Virus record (IMG/VR): IMGVR_UViG_2651869724_000008
DNA length: 8,162 nucleotides
Origin: a virus
Taxonomy: Duplodnaviria; Heunggongvirae; Uroviricota; Caudoviricetes
Direction: 5' to 3' (one strand)
In this document: piece after piece, positions 1-8,162 of the stretch
Position numbering within the stretch: the first letter of the stretch is position 1
Layout: every line of letters starts with the position of its first letter
Translations under genes and position numbers: made by a program
The notes under the pieces: model-generated
The model's input: the letters and a program-made list of their open reading frames with translations, nothing else
Databases searched by the model: none
What the model was told of the DNA's origin: nothing

Positions 1-1467
1 AAAAAACGCCAGAAGGATTTGCAGGATGCAAAAGAGCAGGCAGAGCGGAATTATCAGGAGCAACAGAAACGACGTAATGCTGAAAATGCTGCACTGAACC
101 GGATGAATGAAACGGAAGCAGCACGACATCAGCGTGAAATTGCGCGTATTAATGCCATGCAGTACGCCGACCAGGCTGTCAGGGATGCGGCGATACAACG
201 TGAAAATGAACGTTACGAGAAAGCCCTGGCATCCGGTAAGAAAAAAACACGCGAAACCCGTAATGATGAGGCCACCCGGTTATTGCTGCAGTACAGTCAG
301 CAACAGGCACAGGTGGAAGGACAGATTGCTGCTGCAAGACAGTCAGCAGGCATTGCCACTGAAAAGATGACAGAAGCGCATAAACAGCTTCTGGCTCTGC
401 AGCAGCGCATCAGCGACCTGGACGGGAAAAAACTGACGGCAGATGAAAAGAGTGTGCTGGCCCGTAAAGATGAACTGATTCAGGCACTGACGCTGCTGGA
501 TGTAAAACAGCAGGAGCTTCAGAAACAGACGGCACTCAACGAGCTGAAGAAAAAAACAATTCAGCTGACCAGTCAACTGGCTGAAGAAGAGCGCGCTCAG
601 CGTCAGCAACATGACCTGGATATCGCCACGGTGGGTATGGGTGATCAGCAGCGACAGCGATATCAGGTACAACTGAGTCTTCGCCAGAAATACCAGCAAC
701 AGCTGGAGCAGTTGAGGCGGGATAGTGAGCAGAAAGGGACATATAACACGGATGACTACAGAAAGGCCGAGCAGGCGCTGACGGAGAGCCTGAACCGACA
801 ACTGAATGAGAATCGCCGTTACTGGCAACAGCTTGAAGTTGTGCAGGGTAACTGGAAAAACGGTGCCATGCGGGCGTTTCAGAATTTTACGGCAGATGCG
901 GATAATGCGGCAGGAACTGCTGAACAAATGTTTACATCGGCATTCAGCAGTGCGAGCGACGGGCTGGCGACATTCTGTACCACTGGCAAACTCAATTTCA
1001 AATCCTTCACCTCTTCTCTGTTGTCTGATATGGCAAAAATTATGGCACAGATGGCTATGATGCAGGCGGTAAAGGGCGTCGGTTCTTTATTCGGCATCAC
1101 GGCTAATGCTGATGGCGGTGTTTATCAGTCGGCTGATTTGAGTCGCTACAGTGGCACGGTGGTTAACCGTCCGACGTTTTTTGCTTTTGCAAAAGGCGCG
1201 GGTGTGATGGGGGAAGCAGGACCTGAAGCCATTCTGCCACTGCGTCGTGGTGCTGACGGTAAGCTGGGGGTTGTGGCGGATATTGGGGGTTCAGGTATGG
1301 CGATGTTTTCCCCGCAGTACAACATCGAGATCAATAACGATGGCACGAACGGGCAGATAGGTCCGGCTGCCCTGAAGGCGGTTTATGACCTCGGGAAAAA
1401 AGCGGCAGCGGACTTTATGCAACAGCAGGCCCGTGATGGTGGTCGGTTAAGTGGAGCATATCGGTAA
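1..1467 (+). CDS. H: Tail tape measure protein, C-terminal ~488 codons (5' end lies upstream of the window)
   Basis: Frame 1 is open from position 1 (KKRQKDLQDAKEQ...) to TAA at 1465-1467. The translation is Q/E/R/K-rich and coiled-coil-like for ~300 aa, then Gly/Ala/Met-rich, ending INNDGTNGQIGPAALKAVYD...RDGGRLSGAYR, which I recognise as the conserved C-terminal end of lambda gpH. Position immediately upstream of M with a TAATG overlap matches lambda organisation. Confidence 0.9.
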   Translation, partial: KKRQKDLQDAKEQAERNYQEQQKRRNAENAALNRMNETEAARHQREIARINAMQYADQAVRDAAIQRENERYEKALASGKKKTRETRNDEATRLLLQYSQQQAQVEGQIAAARQSAGIATEKMTEAHKQLLALQQRISDLDGKKLTADEKSVLARKDELIQALTLLDVKQQELQKQTALNELKKKTIQLTSQLAEEERAQRQQHDLDIATVGMGDQQRQRYQVQLSLRQKYQQQLEQLRRDSEQKGTYNTDDYRKAEQALTESLNRQLNENRRYWQQLEVVQGNWKNGAMRAFQNFTADADNAAGTAEQMFTSAFSSASDGLATFCTTGKLNFKSFTSSLLSDMAKIMAQMAMMQAVKGVGSLFGITANADGGVYQSADLSRYSGTVVNRPTFFAFAKGAGVMGEAGPEAILPLRRGADGKLGVVADIGGSGMAMFSPQYNIEINNDGTNGQIGPAALKAVYDLGKKAAADFMQQQARDGGRLSGAYR

Positions 1468-1796
1468 TGGAGACGTTTCACTGGAAAGTGCGCCCGGATA
1501 TGAATGTGGTATCAGAGCCGAAAGTGGTGACAGTGAAGCTGGGCGATGGTTATGAACAGCGTCGTGCGGCGGGACTGAATAACCAGTTGTCGACTTACAG
1601 CGTGACGATACGTGTTCGTAAATGTGAACACCCATCTTTAAAAGCCTTTCTGGAACGGCACGGTGGCGTCCGCGCATTTCAGTGGACGCCACCTTATGAC
1701 TGGAAGCCGATCAGGGTGGTTTGTCGTAAATGGTCGGCAAGCGTGGGGGCGCTGTGGGTAACCATAACGGCAGATTTTGAACAGGTCGTGGCATAG
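1467..1796 (+). CDS. M: Minor tail protein M (tail tip)
   Basis: 109-aa ORF (METFHWKVRPDMNVVSEPK...), the same length as lambda gpM and recognisably the same protein. Its ATG at 1467-1469 overlaps the H stop (TAATG). Stop TAG at 1794-1796. Confidence 0.93.
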   Translation: METFHWKVRPDMNVVSEPKVVTVKLGDGYEQRRAAGLNNQLSTYSVTIRVRKCEHPSLKAFLERHGGVRAFQWTPPYDWKPIRVVCRKWSASVGALWVTITADFEQVVA

Positions 1797-1805
1797 GAGG
1801 CTCTG

Positions 1806-2504
1806 ATGCAGGATATTCCACAGGAAACACATCATGAGACGACACGCCTCACTCAGTCAGCCCAGGTGGTGCTCTGGGAAATCGATCTGACAGAGGTCGG
1901 TGGTGAACGTTATTTTTTCTGTAATGAGCAGAACGAAAAAGGTGAGCCGGTTACCTGGCAGGGGCGGCAGTATCAGGCATACCCCATTCAGGGGACGGGA
2001 TTTGAACTGAACGGCAAGGGCAGTGCTGCCCGTCCGACACTGACGGTTTCTAACCTGCACGGCATGGTCACGGGGATGGCGGAAGACCTGCAGAGTCTGG
2101 TCGGCGGAACGGTGGTCAGGCGTAAGGTTTACGCCCGTTTTCTGGATGCGGTGAACTTCGTCAACGGAAACAGCGACGCCGATCCGGAGCAGGAGGTGAT
2201 CAGCCGCTGGCGCATCGAGCAGTGCAGCGAACTGAGTGCGGTCAGTGCCTCCTTTGTGTTGTCCACACCGACGGAAACGGACGGCGCTGTTTTTCCGGGG
2301 CGCATCATGCTGGCCAACACCTGCACCTGGACCTATCGCGGTGATGAGTGCGGTTATAGCGGTCCGGCTGTCGCGGATGAATATGACCAGCCGACGTCCG
2401 ATATCACGAAAGATAAATGCAGCAAATGCCTGAGTGGCTGTAAGTTTCGCAATAACGTCGGCAACTTTGGCGGCTTCCTTTCCATTAACAAACTTTCGCA
2501 GTAA
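1806..2504 (+). CDS. L: Minor tail protein L (tail tip; C-terminal Cys cluster)
   Basis: 232-aa ORF, the same length as lambda gpL. AGGAGG at 1795-1800 lies 5 nt upstream of the ATG at 1806. The C-terminal region carries clustered cysteines (C173, C182, C205, C208, C212 in CTWTYRGDECGYSGP...CSKCLSGCKF). Confidence 0.93.
   Translation: MQDIPQETHHETTRLTQSAQVVLWEIDLTEVGGERYFFCNEQNEKGEPVTWQGRQYQAYPIQGTGFELNGKGSAARPTLTVSNLHGMVTGMAEDLQSLVGGTVVRRKVYARFLDAVNFVNGNSDADPEQEVISRWRIEQCSELSAVSASFVLSTPTETDGAVFPGRIMLANTCTWTYRGDECGYSGPAVADEYDQPTSDITKDKCSKCLSGCKFRNNVGNFGGFLSINKLSQ
2322..2441 (+). other. Cysteine cluster in the C-terminus of L (putative Fe-S cluster ligands)
   Basis: Five Cys within 40 residues (C173, C182, C205, C208, C212). 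Lambda gpL-family proteins have been reported to coordinate an iron-sulfur cluster through C-terminal cysteines. Confidence 0.55.
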
Positions 2505-2509
2505 ATCCC

Positions 2510-3253
2510 ATGACAGAGACAGAATCAGCGATTCTGGCGCACGCCCGGCGATGTGCGCCAGCGGAGTCGTGTGGCTTCGTGGTGAGAACGCCGGAAGGGG
2601 AAAGATATTTTCCCTGCGTGAATATCTCCGGTGAGCCGGAGGCGTATTTCCGGATGTCGCCGGATGACTGGCTGCAGGCAACACTGCACGGTCAGATTGT
2701 GGCGCTGGTCCACAGTCACCCCGGTGGTCTGCCCTGTCTGAGTGAAGCCGACCGGCGGCTGCAGGTGCAGAGTGATTTGCCGTGGTGGCTGGTCTGCCGG
2801 GGGGCGATTCACAAGTTCCGCTGTGTGCCGCATCTCACCGGGCGGCGCTTTGAGCACGGGGTGACGGACTGTTACACACTGTTCCGGGATGCTTACCATC
2901 TGGCGGGAATTGAGATGCCTGATTTTTATCGTGAGGATGACTGGTGGCGTCACGGTCAGAATCTCTATCTGGATAATCTGGAGGCAACGGGGCTGTATCA
3001 GGTTCCGTTGTCAGCGGCGCAGCCGGGCGATGTGCTGCTGTGCTGTTTTGGTTCATCGGTGCCGAATCATGCCGCCATTTACTGTGGTGACGGCGAGCTG
3101 CTGCACCATATTCCTGAACAACTGAGCAAACGAGAGAGGTATACCGACAAATGGCAGCGACGCACACACTCCCTCTGGCGTCACCGGGCATGGCACGCAT
3201 CTGCCTTTACGGGGATTTGCAACGATTTGGCCGCCGCATCGACCTTCGTGTGA
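2510..3253 (+). CDS. K: Tail tip assembly protein K; N-terminal JAB/MPN (JAMM) metalloprotease-like domain plus C-terminal NlpC/P60-like cysteine peptidase domain
   Basis: 247-aa ORF starting 5 nt after the L stop. It contains HSHPGGLPCLSEAD (an H-x-H-x7-S-x2-D JAMM motif, aa 68-81) and a Cys...His...His arrangement (C121 in DCYTLF, H187, H199/H200) typical of NlpC/P60. The 3' end overlaps the I start by 103 nt in another frame, as I recall for lambda K/I. The classical lambda K annotation (199 aa) corresponds to the internal Met at 2654; I prefer the 2510 start (see findings). Confidence 0.88.
   Translation: MTETESAILAHARRCAPAESCGFVVRTPEGERYFPCVNISGEPEAYFRMSPDDWLQATLHGQIVALVHSHPGGLPCLSEADRRLQVQSDLPWWLVCRGAIHKFRCVPHLTGRRFEHGVTDCYTLFRDAYHLAGIEMPDFYREDDWWRHGQNLYLDNLEATGLYQVPLSAAQPGDVLLCCFGSSVPNHAAIYCGDGELLHHIPEQLSKRERYTDKWQRRTHSLWRHRAWHASAFTGICNDLAAASTFV
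2711..2752 (+). other. JAMM/MPN+ metal-binding motif (HxHx7Sx2D) within K
   Basis: Codons CAC AGT CAC ... encode HSHPGGLPCLSEAD (K residues 68-81), read directly from the sequence. Confidence 0.7.
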
Positions 3254-3792
3254 AAACGGGTGCCGAAGCCATCCGGGCGCTGGCCATGCAGATCCCGGCG
3301 TTTCGTCAGAAACTGAGCAACGGCTGGTATCAGGTACGGATTGCCGGGCGTGATGCAGGCGAAAACGAATTATCAGCCCGTCTTAATGAGCCGCTGGAAA
3401 ATGGTGCCGTGATCCACATCGTTCCGCGTCTTGCGGGAGCCAAAAGTAGCGGTGTTTTTCAGGCGGTGCTGGGTGCGGCGTTGATTGCTACGGCAATCTG
3501 GATGCCGGGGATCAGTATCGCTTTCAGTGACATTCTCTTTTCAATGGGTGCGGCGATGACGCTTGGAGGCGTTGCGCAGATGCTGGCACCGAAAGCCAGT
3601 ACCGCAACAACGACCAGCACGGATAACGGTAAGCAGAACACGTATTTCTCATCACTGGATAACATGGTTGCCCAGGGCAATGTTCTGCCTGTTCTGTACG
3701 GTGAAATGCGTGTGGGGTCACGGGTAATTTCGCAGGAAATCAGCACGGCAGACGAAGGGGATGGTGGTGAAATCGTGGTGATTGGTCGCTGA
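3151..3792 (+). CDS. I: Tail assembly protein I (ubiquitin-like N-terminal region plus hydrophobic C-terminal region)
   Basis: 213-aa ORF MAATHTLPLASPGMARICLYGDLQRFGRRIDLRVKTG..., recognisable as lambda gpI. GAGAGAGG at 3132-3139 lies 11 nt upstream of the ATG. An in-frame TGA at 3115-3117 excludes an earlier start. Stop TGA at 3790-3792. Confidence 0.9.
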   Translation: MAATHTLPLASPGMARICLYGDLQRFGRRIDLRVKTGAEAIRALAMQIPAFRQKLSNGWYQVRIAGRDAGENELSARLNEPLENGAVIHIVPRLAGAKSSGVFQAVLGAALIATAIWMPGISIAFSDILFSMGAAMTLGGVAQMLAPKASTATTTSTDNGKQNTYFSSLDNMVAQGNVLPVLYGEMRVGSRVISQEISTADEGDGGEIVVIGR

Positions 3793-3852: not shown

Positions 3853-6800
3853 ATGGGTAAAGGCAGCAGTAAGGGGCATACCCCGCGCGAAGCGAAGGAC
3901 AACCTGAAATCCACGCAGTTGCTGAGTGTGATCGATGCCATCAGTGAAGGGCCGGTTGAAGGTCCGGTGGATGGCTTAAAAAGCGTGCTGCTGAACAGTA
4001 CGCCGGTGCTGGACAGTGAGGGGAATACCAATATCTCCGGCGTCACGGTGGTGTTCCGGGCAGGTGAGCAGGAGCAGACACCGCCGGAGGGATTTGAATC
4101 CTCCGGCTCCGAGACGGTGCTGGGTACGGAAGTGAAGTACGACACGCCGATTACCCGGACCATCACGTCGGCAAACATCGACCGTCTGCGCCTGACCTTC
4201 GGTGTGCAGGCACTGGTGGAAACCACCTCAAAGGGGGACCGGAATCCGTCGGAAGTCCGCCTGCTGGTTCAGATACAACGTAACGGTGGCTGGGTGACGG
4301 AAAAAGACATCACCATTAAGGGCAAAACCACCTCGCAGTATCTGGCCTCGGTGGTGGTGGGTAACCTGCCGCCGCGCCCGTTTAATATCCGGATGCGCAG
4401 GATGACGCCGGACAGCACCACAGACCAGCTGCAGAACAAAACGCTCTGGTCGTCATACACCGAAATCATCGATGTGAAACAGTGCTACCCGAACACGGCA
4501 CTGGTCGGCGTGCAGGTGGACTCGGAGCAGTTCGGCAGCCAGCAGGTGAGCCGTAATTATCATCTTCGCGGACGCATTCTGCAGGTGCCGTCGAACTATA
4601 ACCCGCAGACGCGGCAATACAGCGGTATCTGGGACGGAACGTTTAAGCCAGCATACAGCAACAACATGGCCTGGTGTCTGTGGGATATGCTGACCCACCC
4701 GCGCTACGGCATGGGGAAACGTCTTGGTGCGGCGGATGTGGACAAATGGGCGTTGTATGTCATCGGCCAGTACTGTGACCAGTCAGTGCCGGACGGCTCT
4801 GGCGGCACGGAGCCGCGCATCACCTGTAATGCGTACCTGACCACACAGCGCAAGGCGTGGGATGTGCTCAGTGATTTCTGCTCGGCGATGCGCTGTATGC
4901 CGGTATGGAACGGGCAGACGCTGACGTTCGTGCAGGACCGACCATCAGATAAGGTGTGGACCTATAACCGCAGTAATGTGGTGATGCCGGATGATGGCGC
5001 GCCGTTCCGCTACAGCTTCAGCGCCCTGAAGGACCGCCATAATGCCGTTGAGGTGAACTGGATTGACCCGAACAACGGCTGGGAGACGGCGACAGAGCTT
5101 GTGGAGGATACGCAGGCCATTGCCCGTTACGGTCGTAACGTCACGAAGATGGATGCTTTTGGCTGTACCAGCCGGGGGCAGGCACACCGCGCCGGGCTGT
5201 GGCTGATTAAAACAGAACTGCTGGAAACGCAGACCGTGGACTTCAGCGTGGGCGCAGAAGGGCTTCGCCATGTGCCGGGCGATGTCATTGAAATCTGTGA
5301 TGATGACTATGCCGGTATCAGCACCGGCGGGCGCGTGCTTGCGGTGAACAGCCAGACCCGGACGCTGACGCTCGACCGTGAAATCACGCTGCCATCCTCC
5401 GGTACCACGCTGATAAGCCTGGTTGACGGAAGTGGCAATCCGGTCAGCGTGGAGGTTCAGTCCGTCACCGACGGCGTGAAGGTGAAAGTGAGCCGGGTTC
5501 CTGACGGCGTTGCCGAATACAGCGTATGGGGGCTGAAGCTGCCGACGCTGCGCCAGCGCCTGTTCCGCTGCGTGAGTATCCGTGAGAACGACGACGGCAC
5601 GTATGCCATCACCGCCGTGCAGCATGTGCCTGAAAAAGAGGCTATCGTGGATAACGGGGCGCACTTTGACGGCGACCAGAGCGGAACGGTGAATGGTGTC
5701 ACGCCGCCAGCGGTGCAGCACCTGACCGCCGAAGTCTCGGCAGACAGCGGGGAGTATCAGGTGCTGGCCCGCTGGGACACGCCGAAGGTGGTGAAGGGAG
5801 TGAGCTTTATGCTTCGCCTGGCTGTGGCAGCAGACGACGGCAGTGAGCGGCTGGTCAGCACGGCCCGGACGACGGAAACCGAATATCGTTTCAGGCAACT
5901 GGCGCCGGGGAACTACAGGCTGACAGTCCGGGCGGTAAATGCGTGGGGACAGCAGGGCGACCCGGCGTCGGTATCGTTCAGGATTACCGCACCGGCAGCG
6001 CCTGTCACTATTGAACTGATACCGGGGTATTTTCAGATAACGGCGGTCCCGAAACTGGCTGTATATGACCCGACGGTACAGTTTGAGTTCTGGTTCTCGG
6101 AAAAGCGGATTACCGATATCAGGCAGGTTGAAACCACAGCCCGCTATCTTGGTACGGCGCTGTACTGGATAGCCGCCAGTATCAATATCAAACCGGGCCA
6201 TGATTATTACTTTTATATCCGCAGTGTGAACACCGTTGGTAAATCGGCATTCGTGGAGGCTGTCGGTCAGCCGAGTGATGATGCATCAGGCTATCTGGAT
6301 TTTTTCAAAGGAGAGATAGGGAAAACCCATCTGGCTCAGGAGCTGTGGACGCAGATTGATAACGGTCAGCTTGCGCCTGACCTGGCTGAAATCAGGACGT
6401 CCATTACGGATGTCAGCAATGAAATCACACAGACCGTCAATAAGAAACTGGAAGACCAGAGTGCAGCGATCCAGCAGATACAGAAGGTTCAGGTTGATAC
6501 AAATAATAATCTGAACAGCATGTGGGCTGTGAAGCTGCAGCAGATGCAGGACGGACGCCTTTATATTGCGGGTATCGGTGCCGGTATTGAGAACACCCCC
6601 GACGGCATGCAGAGTCAGGTGCTGCTGGCGGCAGACAGGATTGCGATGATTAATCCTGCAAATGGCAACACAAAGCCGATGTTTGTTGGTCAGGGTGATC
6701 AGATATTCATGAACGACGTGTTCCTGAAGCGTCTGACGGCCCCGACCATCACCAGCGGCGGCAATCCTCCGGCATTTTCCCTGACACCGGACGGGCGGCT

Positions 6801-7350
6801 GACGGCGAAAAACGTTGATATCAGCGGTAACGTGAATGCGAACTCAGGAACGCTCAACAATGTCACGATAAGTGAGAACTGTACGATTAAGGGCATGCTG
6901 GAGGCGACCCAGGTCAGAGGGGATTTCGTTAAAGCTGTATCAAAAGCCTTCCCGAAAAAAGTCGGTACGTGGGGTAACACGGAAACGCCAGACGGGACGG
7001 TTACAGTCACCATCAGCGATGATCATAACTTTGACCGTCAGATTATTATTCCGCCCATTATTTTTAACGGTATAGCGTATACCGATCCGGGAAGTGGTAA
7101 TAATCCGGGAGGTACAAGGTACACGGGTTATGGATTTGAAGTTCGCAAAAACGGCGTATTAATCGCATCCAGAGAAACTAAAGGGGCCATTCCCGGTAGT
7201 TACAGTGCGGTTATTGATATGCCGGGTGGCAGGGGAAGCGTCACTCTGGAGTTTAAGATTTTCCAGAAAGGCAATCAGGGGGCAGGCAATATCACCGACT
7301 GTACGGTGATTGTGACCAAAAAAGCGGCTTCCGGCATCAGTATTCGTTGA
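3853..7350 (+). CDS. J: Host specificity protein J (central tail fibre / tail tip protein)
   Basis: 1165-aa ORF. The first ~800 aa ([34 protein letters not shown]...) are near-identical to my recollection of lambda gpJ. GGAG at 3841-3844 lies 8 nt upstream of the ATG. The central part contains fibronectin-III-like repeats (e.g. [33 protein letters not shown]). The C-terminal ~150 aa appear divergent from lambda J. Confidence 0.95.
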
Positions 7351-7368
7351 AATTGTTATAACCCATAT

Positions 7369-7399
7369 AAGGGCACCAGAAATGGTGCCTTTTTTATTT
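7369..7399 (+). terminator. Rho-independent terminator-like hairpin immediately downstream of J
   Basis: AAGGGCACC (7369-7377), loop AGAAAT, GGTGCCTTT (7384-7392) give a stem of up to 9 bp with one G-U pair, immediately followed by a T-run (TTTTTTATTT, 7390-7399). It sits 19 nt after the J stop and 12 nt before the stf ATG. Confidence 0.55.
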
Positions 7400-7410
7400 G
7401 TGGAGTGAGT

Positions 7411-8162
7411 ATGGCAGTACAGATTTCAGGTGTACTGAAAGATGGTGCGGGAAAACCAATACAGAACTGCACCATTCAACTGAAAGCCAGACGGACCAGC
7501 AGCACGGTGGTGGTGAACACGGTGGCCTCTGAAAATCCGGATGAAGCCGGTCGTTACAGCATGGACGTTGAGTACGGGCAGTACAGCGTTATTCTGTTGG
7601 TGGAAGGATTCCCGCCATCCCATGCCGGGACCATCACCGTGTATGAAGATTCTCAACCGGGGACGCTGAATGATTTTCTCGGTGCCATGTCGGAGGATGA
7701 CGTCCGGCCGGAGGCACTGCGTCGTTTTGAACAAATGGTGGAAGAGGCAGCGCGTCATGCCGGGGAGGCGAAGAAGAATGCCGGAGAGGCAGAGACGTCC
7801 GCGAGGAATGCCGGCATATCAGCCAGTCAGGCAGAAAAGAGCGCTGCACATGCTGACACTTCAGCAGGATATGCATCGGAGTCAGCCCGGCAGGCGGCAG
7901 AAAGTGCAGCCTCAGCAAAGCAGTCAGAGGAGGCGTCCTCGTCCTCGGCCTCTGAGGCCGCTCAAAAAGCCAGTGAGTCATCACAAAGTGCAGCAGAAGC
8001 TGAATTGTCAAGAAAGACGGCAGAAAGTGCAGCCGGTAATGCAGCCAGGGATGCAACGACCGCAGCAGAAAAAGCCCGGGAGTCAGCAGAAAGCGCACAG
8101 TCAGCGGAACAAAGCAGGATAGCGGCGGAAGACGCCGTAAACCGAATCCCCACCGTGGTGGG
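7411..8162 (+). CDS. stf: Side tail fibre protein Stf, N-terminal ~250 codons (3' end lies beyond the window)
   Basis: Frame 1 is open from ATG 7411 to the window end, checked by manual translation; this ORF is missing from the supplied track because it has no stop inside the window. N-terminus MAVQISGVLKDGAGKPIQNCTIQLKARRTSSTVVVNTVASENPDEAGRYSMDVEYGQYSVIL matches the lambda Stf (orf-401) N-terminus from memory, followed by an Ala/Ser/Glu-rich repetitive shaft region. GGAG at 7402-7405. Confidence 0.88.
   Translation, partial: MAVQISGVLKDGAGKPIQNCTIQLKARRTSSTVVVNTVASENPDEAGRYSMDVEYGQYSVILLVEGFPPSHAGTITVYEDSQPGTLNDFLGAMSEDDVRPEALRRFEQMVEEAARHAGEAKKNAGEAETSARNAGISASQAEKSAAHADTSAGYASESARQAAESAASAKQSEEASSSSASEAAQKASESSQSAAEAELSRKTAESAAGNAARDATTAAEKARESAESAQSAEQSRIAAEDAVNRIPTVV
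7747..8130 (+). repeat. Degenerate short-period Ala/Ser/Glu-rich coding repeats in the stf shaft region
   Basis: The protein shows reiterated units such as AGEAKKNAGEAETSARNAG / SAAHADTSAGYASESARQAAESAASAKQSEEAS / KASESSQSAAEAELSRKTAESAAGNAARDATTAAEKARESAESAQSAEQS. The DNA repeats GCAGAAAG(T/C)GC-like motifs at about 7832, 7897, 8021 and 8086. Confidence 0.5.

Follow-up and report, generated by a model that had tools for sequence, protein, structure and literature searches.

We asked whether the C-terminal tip of protein J, the central tail fibre of lambda-family phages, has been exchanged for a different module in the locus described here, and, if so, which receptor such a tip would be expected to recognize. 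The window, i.e. the whole stretch of DNA that was analysed, comprises 8162 bases and is the entire contig JHSK01000068.1 of assembly GCA_001265925.1. It carries tail genes in the order H-M-L-K-I-J-side tail fibre, with matching Pfam families, and the same order is annotated in lambda, 434 and cdtI. Its features are listed below; percentages refer to identity with the J proteins of lambda (NC_001416, 15505-18903; P03749) and phage 434 (UMO75286.1 in OL657226), which served as references in MAFFT alignments.

1-1467, plus strand: C-terminal 488 aa of the tape measure gene H, open to the contig start (ORF)
1467-1796, plus strand: gene M (ORF)
1806-2504, plus strand: gene L (ORF)
2510-3253, plus strand: gene K (ORF)
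ending at 3792, plus strand: gene I (ORF)
3853-7350, plus strand: gene J, tip attachment protein or central tail fibre, 1165 aa, intact (ORF, Pfam, exact RefSeq match)
3853-6264, plus strand: conserved N-terminal part of J, aa 1-804 (96.8% lambda, 97.6% 434)
6265-6687, plus strand: second mosaic segment of J, aa 805-945 (52% lambda, 53% 434)
6688-6858, plus strand: conserved block between the variable modules, aa 946-1002, ending in SGTLNNVTI (89.5% lambda, 86% 434)
6859-7350, plus strand: module classed by identity as a 434-type receptor-binding (host specificity) module, aa 1003-1165 plus the stop codon (43.4% lambda, 95.1% 434)
7369-7402, plus strand: terminator-like hairpin (7369-7392) and T-run just 3′ of the J stop, from a consensus scan; a 10-pair stem AAGGGCACCAGAAATGGTGCCTTT, then TTTATTTGTG
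7411-8162, plus strand: start of an stf-like side tail fibre gene (called gene), ended by the contig end; its translation begins 'MAVQISGVLKDGAGKP...'

The J protein has an exact match in RefSeq, WP_028127177.1 ("phage attachment tail tip protein J [Escherichia coli]"), which falls in a cluster of 34,633 members at 90% identity. Six Pfam families (FNIII-A_GpJ, Phage-tail_3, Ig_J, Ig_J_second, Phage_Tail_Tip and Ig_GpJ_C) were found on it, every one above its curated cut-off and in the expected order, which makes up the full domain series of a lambda-family J; FNIII-A_GpJ, Phage-tail_3 and two Ig-like domains lie within aa 1-804. The protein exceeds the 1132 aa of lambda J by 33 residues, 28 of which are found in aa 805-945 and five in the tip.

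The first-pass annotation, made from the sequence without database searches, had described the N-terminal ~800 aa of J as nearly identical to lambda gpJ and the C-terminus as departing from it, while keeping a similar overall layout. The alignments bear this out in each respect: the identity to lambda of 96.8% over aa 1-804 gives way to 40.1% over aa 1013-1165 (nt 6889-7347), where identity to 434 is 96.1%, the DMPxGRG motif is present in both the window and the lambda J, and the peptide that had been quoted is the exact C-terminus of the 1165-aa ORF at 3853-7350. Over the whole module, aa 1003-1165 (nt 6859-7347), 66/152 positions (43.4%) are identical to lambda, with 17 gapped columns, and 155/163 (95.1%) are identical to 434 J in a gapless alignment. 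The possibility that there is no swap is ruled out by the 43% identity of the last 163 aa to the J of NC_001416: the C-terminal identity of over 90% that an unswapped tip would show is not reached.

The left edge of the module had been set at 6890, and here the earlier description needs correction, as the module itself stands but its true boundary is found some 30 nt farther upstream, at nt 6850-6870 (window aa ~1000-1006; aa ~972-978 in lambda J). Scored per 60-nt bin, the window's DNA identity to lambda drops from 0.95 (6733) through 0.77 (6793) and 0.72 (6853) to 0.42 (6913), and DNA identity to 434 is 0.86-1.00 across the coding part of the module. GC content is 45-48% over the tip module, as opposed to 58-64% in mid-J. 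A decrease from ~97% to ~43% identity with such sharp edges excludes chance.

The limits of the module coincide with the specificity region of lambda J, aa 960-1132 (PMC6646904). Relative to lambda, its indels are situated after lambda aa 1011, 1043, 1078 and 1099, and at 1109-1114, that is, at or near positions 1012, 1048, 1077 and 1107 (lambda numbering), which are the hot spots of indels and variability among natural J homologs (PMC6646904); this distribution fits a conserved scaffold with replaced receptor-facing loops. Lambda J (P03749; structures 8xck, 8xcj and 8iyk) shares with the window its architecture, the Ig-like fold described below and the DMPxGRG and DDHxFDRQI motifs, and differs from it in having a LamB-binding tip and in the indels within the receptor-facing hot-spot regions.

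With 43.4% identity to lambda J aa ~975-1132, the tip falls outside the lambda-type LamB-binding module, and no module of that type appeared among the megablast matches of the tip region. Both sequence identity and the position of the boundary at the conserved block place it within the 434-type (h434) module. Judged by its sequence, the tip module is a phage 434-type (h434) J receptor-binding domain, belonging to an allele class unlike the LamB-binding one of lambda. The 434 J and the lambda h434 hybrid agree with the window in the tip (155/163 aa), in the module boundary and in the N-terminal 800 aa, and 434 has an annotated terminator after J, where the window has its terminator-like hairpin; on the other hand, 434 differs in eight module residues, in a different shaft that is 28 aa shorter, and in the presence of lom.

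The fold of the tip could be assessed in several ways. The Pfam domain Ig_GpJ_C ([quoted passage not shown]) covers aa 1029-1164 with E = 4.9e-25, and a phmmer comparison of the last 215 aa with solved structures yielded A8 gpJ (9wca/9wcb, E = 2.9e-65; 9wcb is the A8 gpJ tip bound to OmpC) and lambda J (8xcj/8xck, E = 5.6e-59). A structure prediction of the C-terminal domain, which had been proposed in the first-pass annotation, was made with AlphaFold2 and gave a tip model with a mean pLDDT of 74 and block means of 77-95 across most of the domain; it is a monomer model from a shallow alignment, with unreliable loop detail. Its best Foldseek matches are the J receptor-binding structures 8xcj, 8xck, 9wca and 9wcb (E = 1e-15 to 1e-18). 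Pfam, sequence and AlphaFold model agree in giving the tip the Ig-like J receptor-binding fold of lambda J and A8 gpJ.

Similar exchanges are known in A8 (9wca/9wcb), 1A2 (PMC11338833) and phi330 (PMC12502783), engineered or natural gpJ variants which, like the window, have a lambda-family J with an exchanged C-terminal module, and in which this module directs binding to OmpC. The window tip does not belong with A8, to which it is homologous but only ~47-55% identical (phmmer and Foldseek against 9wca), nor with 1A2, the C-terminus of which is clearly of another class on a by-eye reading of error-bearing, machine-read supplement DNA (PMC11338833). The phi330 tip is 35-40% identical to the lambda and 434 tips (PMC12502783). 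Since the A8, 1A2 and phi330 tips (~35-55% identity) also use OmpC, the receptor does not simply track sequence class.

To see how common the module is, one may turn to complete E. coli genomes. BLAST located the 462-bp tip sequence in 2112 of 5426 genomes (~39%), with up to 7 copies per genome; 831 of the E. coli records matching the 434-type tip do so at 95-99% identity, and 1266 at 90-95%. Lambda's own tip is present in 98 of the 5426, always with at least 99% identity, and the five records listed for it are laboratory K-12, B and DE3 strains. The 434-type tip is thus about 20 times commoner, and these counts (2112 versus 98 genomes) make lambda the outlier and the supposedly divergent tip the common natural form. 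Among phages, tip DNA at 93-94% identity occurs in 434, the laboratory hybrid "lambda h434 imm21", cdtI, Ayreon, mEp460, mEp332, several PhiR phages and many Stx1a-, Stx2a- and Stx2c-converting phages. A protein search with the 165-aa tip, which returned mostly partial proteins, showed the class to be widespread in E. coli, E. albertii and Shigella, including Shigella sonnei. For the window as a whole, the best phage matches are cdtI (100% coverage, 94.2%), Ayreon and mEp460; some match to it exists in 4996 of the 5426 complete E. coli genomes, with a median of 2 and a maximum of 15 matching tail regions per genome. In the literature, the study of PhiR and mEp phages with 434-type tips deals with dependence on ManYZ and the tape measure and names no outer-membrane receptors (PMC13190303), and a preprint on Drexlerviridae-type GpJ does not cover the lambdoid 434-type tips (10.64898/2026.04.02.716166).

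The tip is not the sole divergent part of J. The segment comprising aa 805-945, overlooked in the earlier annotation, shares 52% of its residues with lambda and 53% with 434, and exceeds its counterpart in either by 28 aa, owing to insertions (window aa 836-856 and 860-866). The part of lambda J aligned with it contains residues 841-861, assigned in the lambda structure paper to the alpha-helical shaft; the segment therefore probably covers the shaft together with the beginning of the straight fibre, and a longer shaft could change fibre reach or triggering. At the nucleotide level, most of the segment (nt 6253-6612) is 21-64% identical to lambda, 434 and a prophage of E. coli AMSHJX01 (22-64% for the latter), whereas the segment is 93-99% identical to phages cdtI and Kati (93-97% for cdtI) and 96.5-98.3% identical to the 25 phage records listed, which include Kati, Ayreon and Stx2a phages.

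Comparison with these relatives shows how the parts are combined. The J of the AMSHJX01 prophage (WP_114107247.1, NZ_CP030939) has a tip identical to that of the window at 163/163 aa, with 100% nucleotide identity over 6853-7311 and 97% in the last bin, and its side tail fibre gene likewise follows J directly, without lom; however, this J is 1137 aa long and has a short lambda/434-like shaft. Conversely, cdtI and Kati have a J of 1165 aa with the long shaft and 434-type tips (154/163 and 158/163 identical residues, respectively), but these tips differ from that of the window at 5-9 residues, and lom is present downstream. As the tip is shared with the short-shaft J of AMSHJX01 and the shaft with cdtI and Kati, the modules occur in different combinations, and in a six-way comparison the tip and the shaft segment assort independently. 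The intervening block, aa 946-1002, is the likely crossover site. Within it falls lambda aa 964, the last identity stretch and the fusion point of engineered gpJ chimeras, including those carrying the A8 and 1A2 modules (PMC11338833). Farther upstream, in the J Ig-like domains (nt ~5773-6072), short patches are 77-83% identical to lambda and 434 at the nucleotide level, as compared with 95-100% elsewhere there, and in the first of these low-identity patches the AMSHJX01 J is closer to the window (97%); the patches look like fine-scale mosaicism.

The surroundings of J show further departures from lambda. No lom is found between J and the side tail fibre gene (7351-7410), whereas lambda, 434, cdtI and Kati all have it there; the gene next after J in AMSHJX01 is annotated as "prophage tail fiber N-terminal domain-containing protein", and, from the annotations under the matches, ev207, Tritos, HannyBb and PhiR11_1 appear to share the arrangement without lom. 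The receptor-binding end of the side tail fibre lies outside the window. In Ur-lambda, side fibres bind OmpC (PMC11338833), so that J and side fibres could compete or cooperate on one porin. Downstream of the tail fibres, the retrieved AMSHJX01 locus (11316-15574) contains type III effectors (NleG, a HECT-type E3 ligase effector and NleC), and the retrieved phage 434 locus (8047-10599) contains NleC genes and NleB-like and NleH-like fragments; both have the J tip discussed here, and the window stops short of the corresponding region. At the other end of the window, the C-terminal 488 aa of the tape measure are 27% identical to lambda H, except for the last ~40 residues, and match those of cdtI, Ayreon, mEp460, PhiR40_1, PhiR47_1 and PhiR55_1. 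The three PhiR phages were cited as evidence of ManYZ-independent SNIPE defence (PMC13190303), and a tail with a tape measure resembling theirs may take a path across the inner membrane that differs from lambda's ManYZ route. Antisense ORFs over the tip region (e.g. 6699-7013, minus strand, 104 aa) are regarded as by-products of the J frame.

What, then, would this J bind? The J C-terminus sets host specificity, and a lambda phage given the 434 tail-fibre gene in place of J is reported to use OmpC, which is the 434 receptor, instead of LamB (PMC11101478, PMC3509688). Since the tip is of the 434 class and the 434 gene brings about this switch, a receptor and a host range other than those of lambda are to be expected, as the first-pass annotation had proposed for a swapped module; that proposal finds support in the identity to 434. 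We put the probability at roughly 85% that this J, from an E. coli prophage, is a mosaic lambda-family central tail fibre in which the C-terminal ~163 aa constitute a 434-type, OmpC-using receptor-binding domain. By homology, with 95% identity to 434 J, OmpC is much the most probable receptor for the allele in the window.

The lambda structures suggest how such a fibre would operate. In lambda, a trimer of Ig-like domains inserts four bottom loops into the LamB trimer, and the opening of the tip is relayed via the beta-prism fibre and the alpha-helical shaft until the tail opens (PMC11101478). By analogy with lambda J, three copies of the Ig-like domain would form the fibre tip of the window phage, with distal loops docking onto a trimeric outer-membrane porin, which for the 434 class would be OmpC and not LamB, and the binding signal would pass up the straight fibre and the helical shaft to open the tail tip. 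The tip itself would have been acquired by homologous recombination in the block at aa 946-1002 (lambda aa ~918-974). Lambdoid phages swap their host-range cassettes in this manner, by homologous recombination at a conserved block.

Fast evolution and diversifying selection have been described for the J specificity region (PMC6646904), and one might suppose that the window J diverged from lambda by gradual point mutation rather than by module exchange. Such an origin is extremely improbable, because nucleotide identity to lambda collapses from 0.95 (6733) to 0.42 (6913) within ~200 nt, with several indels and a fall in GC content inside the module, and because the tip recurs, with 100% nucleotide identity, behind another shaft in the AMSHJX01 prophage. 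Exchange of a module can also be accepted while supposing that J is a relic in a defective prophage and that its receptor specificity has no present function. Many prophages are cryptic. The contig is only an 8.2-kb fragment, and E. coli genomes hold a median of 2, and up to 15, tail regions of this kind. We nevertheless regard a functionless relic as unlikely, since J is intact, as are the upstream tail genes M, L, K and I, which keep the lambda order (H and stf being open to the contig ends), and since the J tip is identical at the protein level in an independent genome, that of AMSHJX01.

More pertinent to the receptor is the question of whether a tip with the 434-type fold has, through substitutions in its distal loops, come to use another receptor or only particular OmpC variants. 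Within the module, eight residues are not those of 434 J (window residue first): S1007N, E1008Q, T1077D, G1125S, R1127G, I1136V, Q1138H and G1143R. Several of them, when placed by alignment to the lambda hot-spot residues, lie in or beside the hot-spot loops: T1077 is within the insertion that matches the lambda 1048 hot spot, G1143 aligns with lambda H1104, adjoining hot spot 1107, and G1125 and R1127 are in the DMPxGRG loop. Across 13 natural 434-class alleles, variation is clustered at aa ~1032-1047, 1077-1078, 1125-1129 and 1136-1143, which match the hot-spot regions of lambda together with the DMPxGRG loop, and the polymorphic positions are the same ones that distinguish the window from 434. 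Selectivity for OmpC alleles has been described for gpJ, with A8 using both the MG1655 and the EDL933 OmpC and 1A2 only the EDL933 variant (PMC11338833), and lambda J needs only a few substitutions to gain access to OmpF (PMC6646904). Against an altered receptor argue the 95% identity to 434 J and the retention in the window tip of all 33 of 33 invariant columns in an alignment that includes four more distant J tips; besides, the OmpF gain in lambda involves particular changes at the critical positions 1012 and 1107, together with others (PMC6646904), and an equivalent requirement is not known for the 434 class. We consider a change of receptor, or a restriction to certain OmpC variants, improbable, and retain the reading of a mosaic J with a 434-type, OmpC-using tip.

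If J is such a mosaic, particles should adsorb via OmpC and not LamB, so that mal/lamB mutants would not be resistant and ompC mutants, or hosts with a divergent OmpC, would be. As to its novelty, this is a textbook h434 host-range module in a catalogued protein, already known and with nothing new in kind; what is added is confined to the second mosaic segment, the lack of lom and a tape measure unlike lambda's, and each of these is ordinary lambdoid mosaicism. That J C-terminal cassettes are exchanged at a conserved junction was already clear from the h434 hybrids, and such exchange now serves as an engineering tool; current understanding is unchanged by the finding, which is useful for annotation and host-range prediction.

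It should also be considered that engineered gpJ variants discriminate between OmpC alleles (PMC11338833), and the fine specificity of this tip may accordingly differ from that of 434. Quite tentatively, residues T1077, G1125, R1127, Q1138 and G1143 may tune the fibre to the OmpC alleles of particular E. coli or E. albertii lineages, and the 28-aa-longer shaft may alter its reach or triggering; we would sooner doubt this than rely on it, but, if true, the thousands of natural 434-class alleles would constitute a readable code for OmpC-allele host range.
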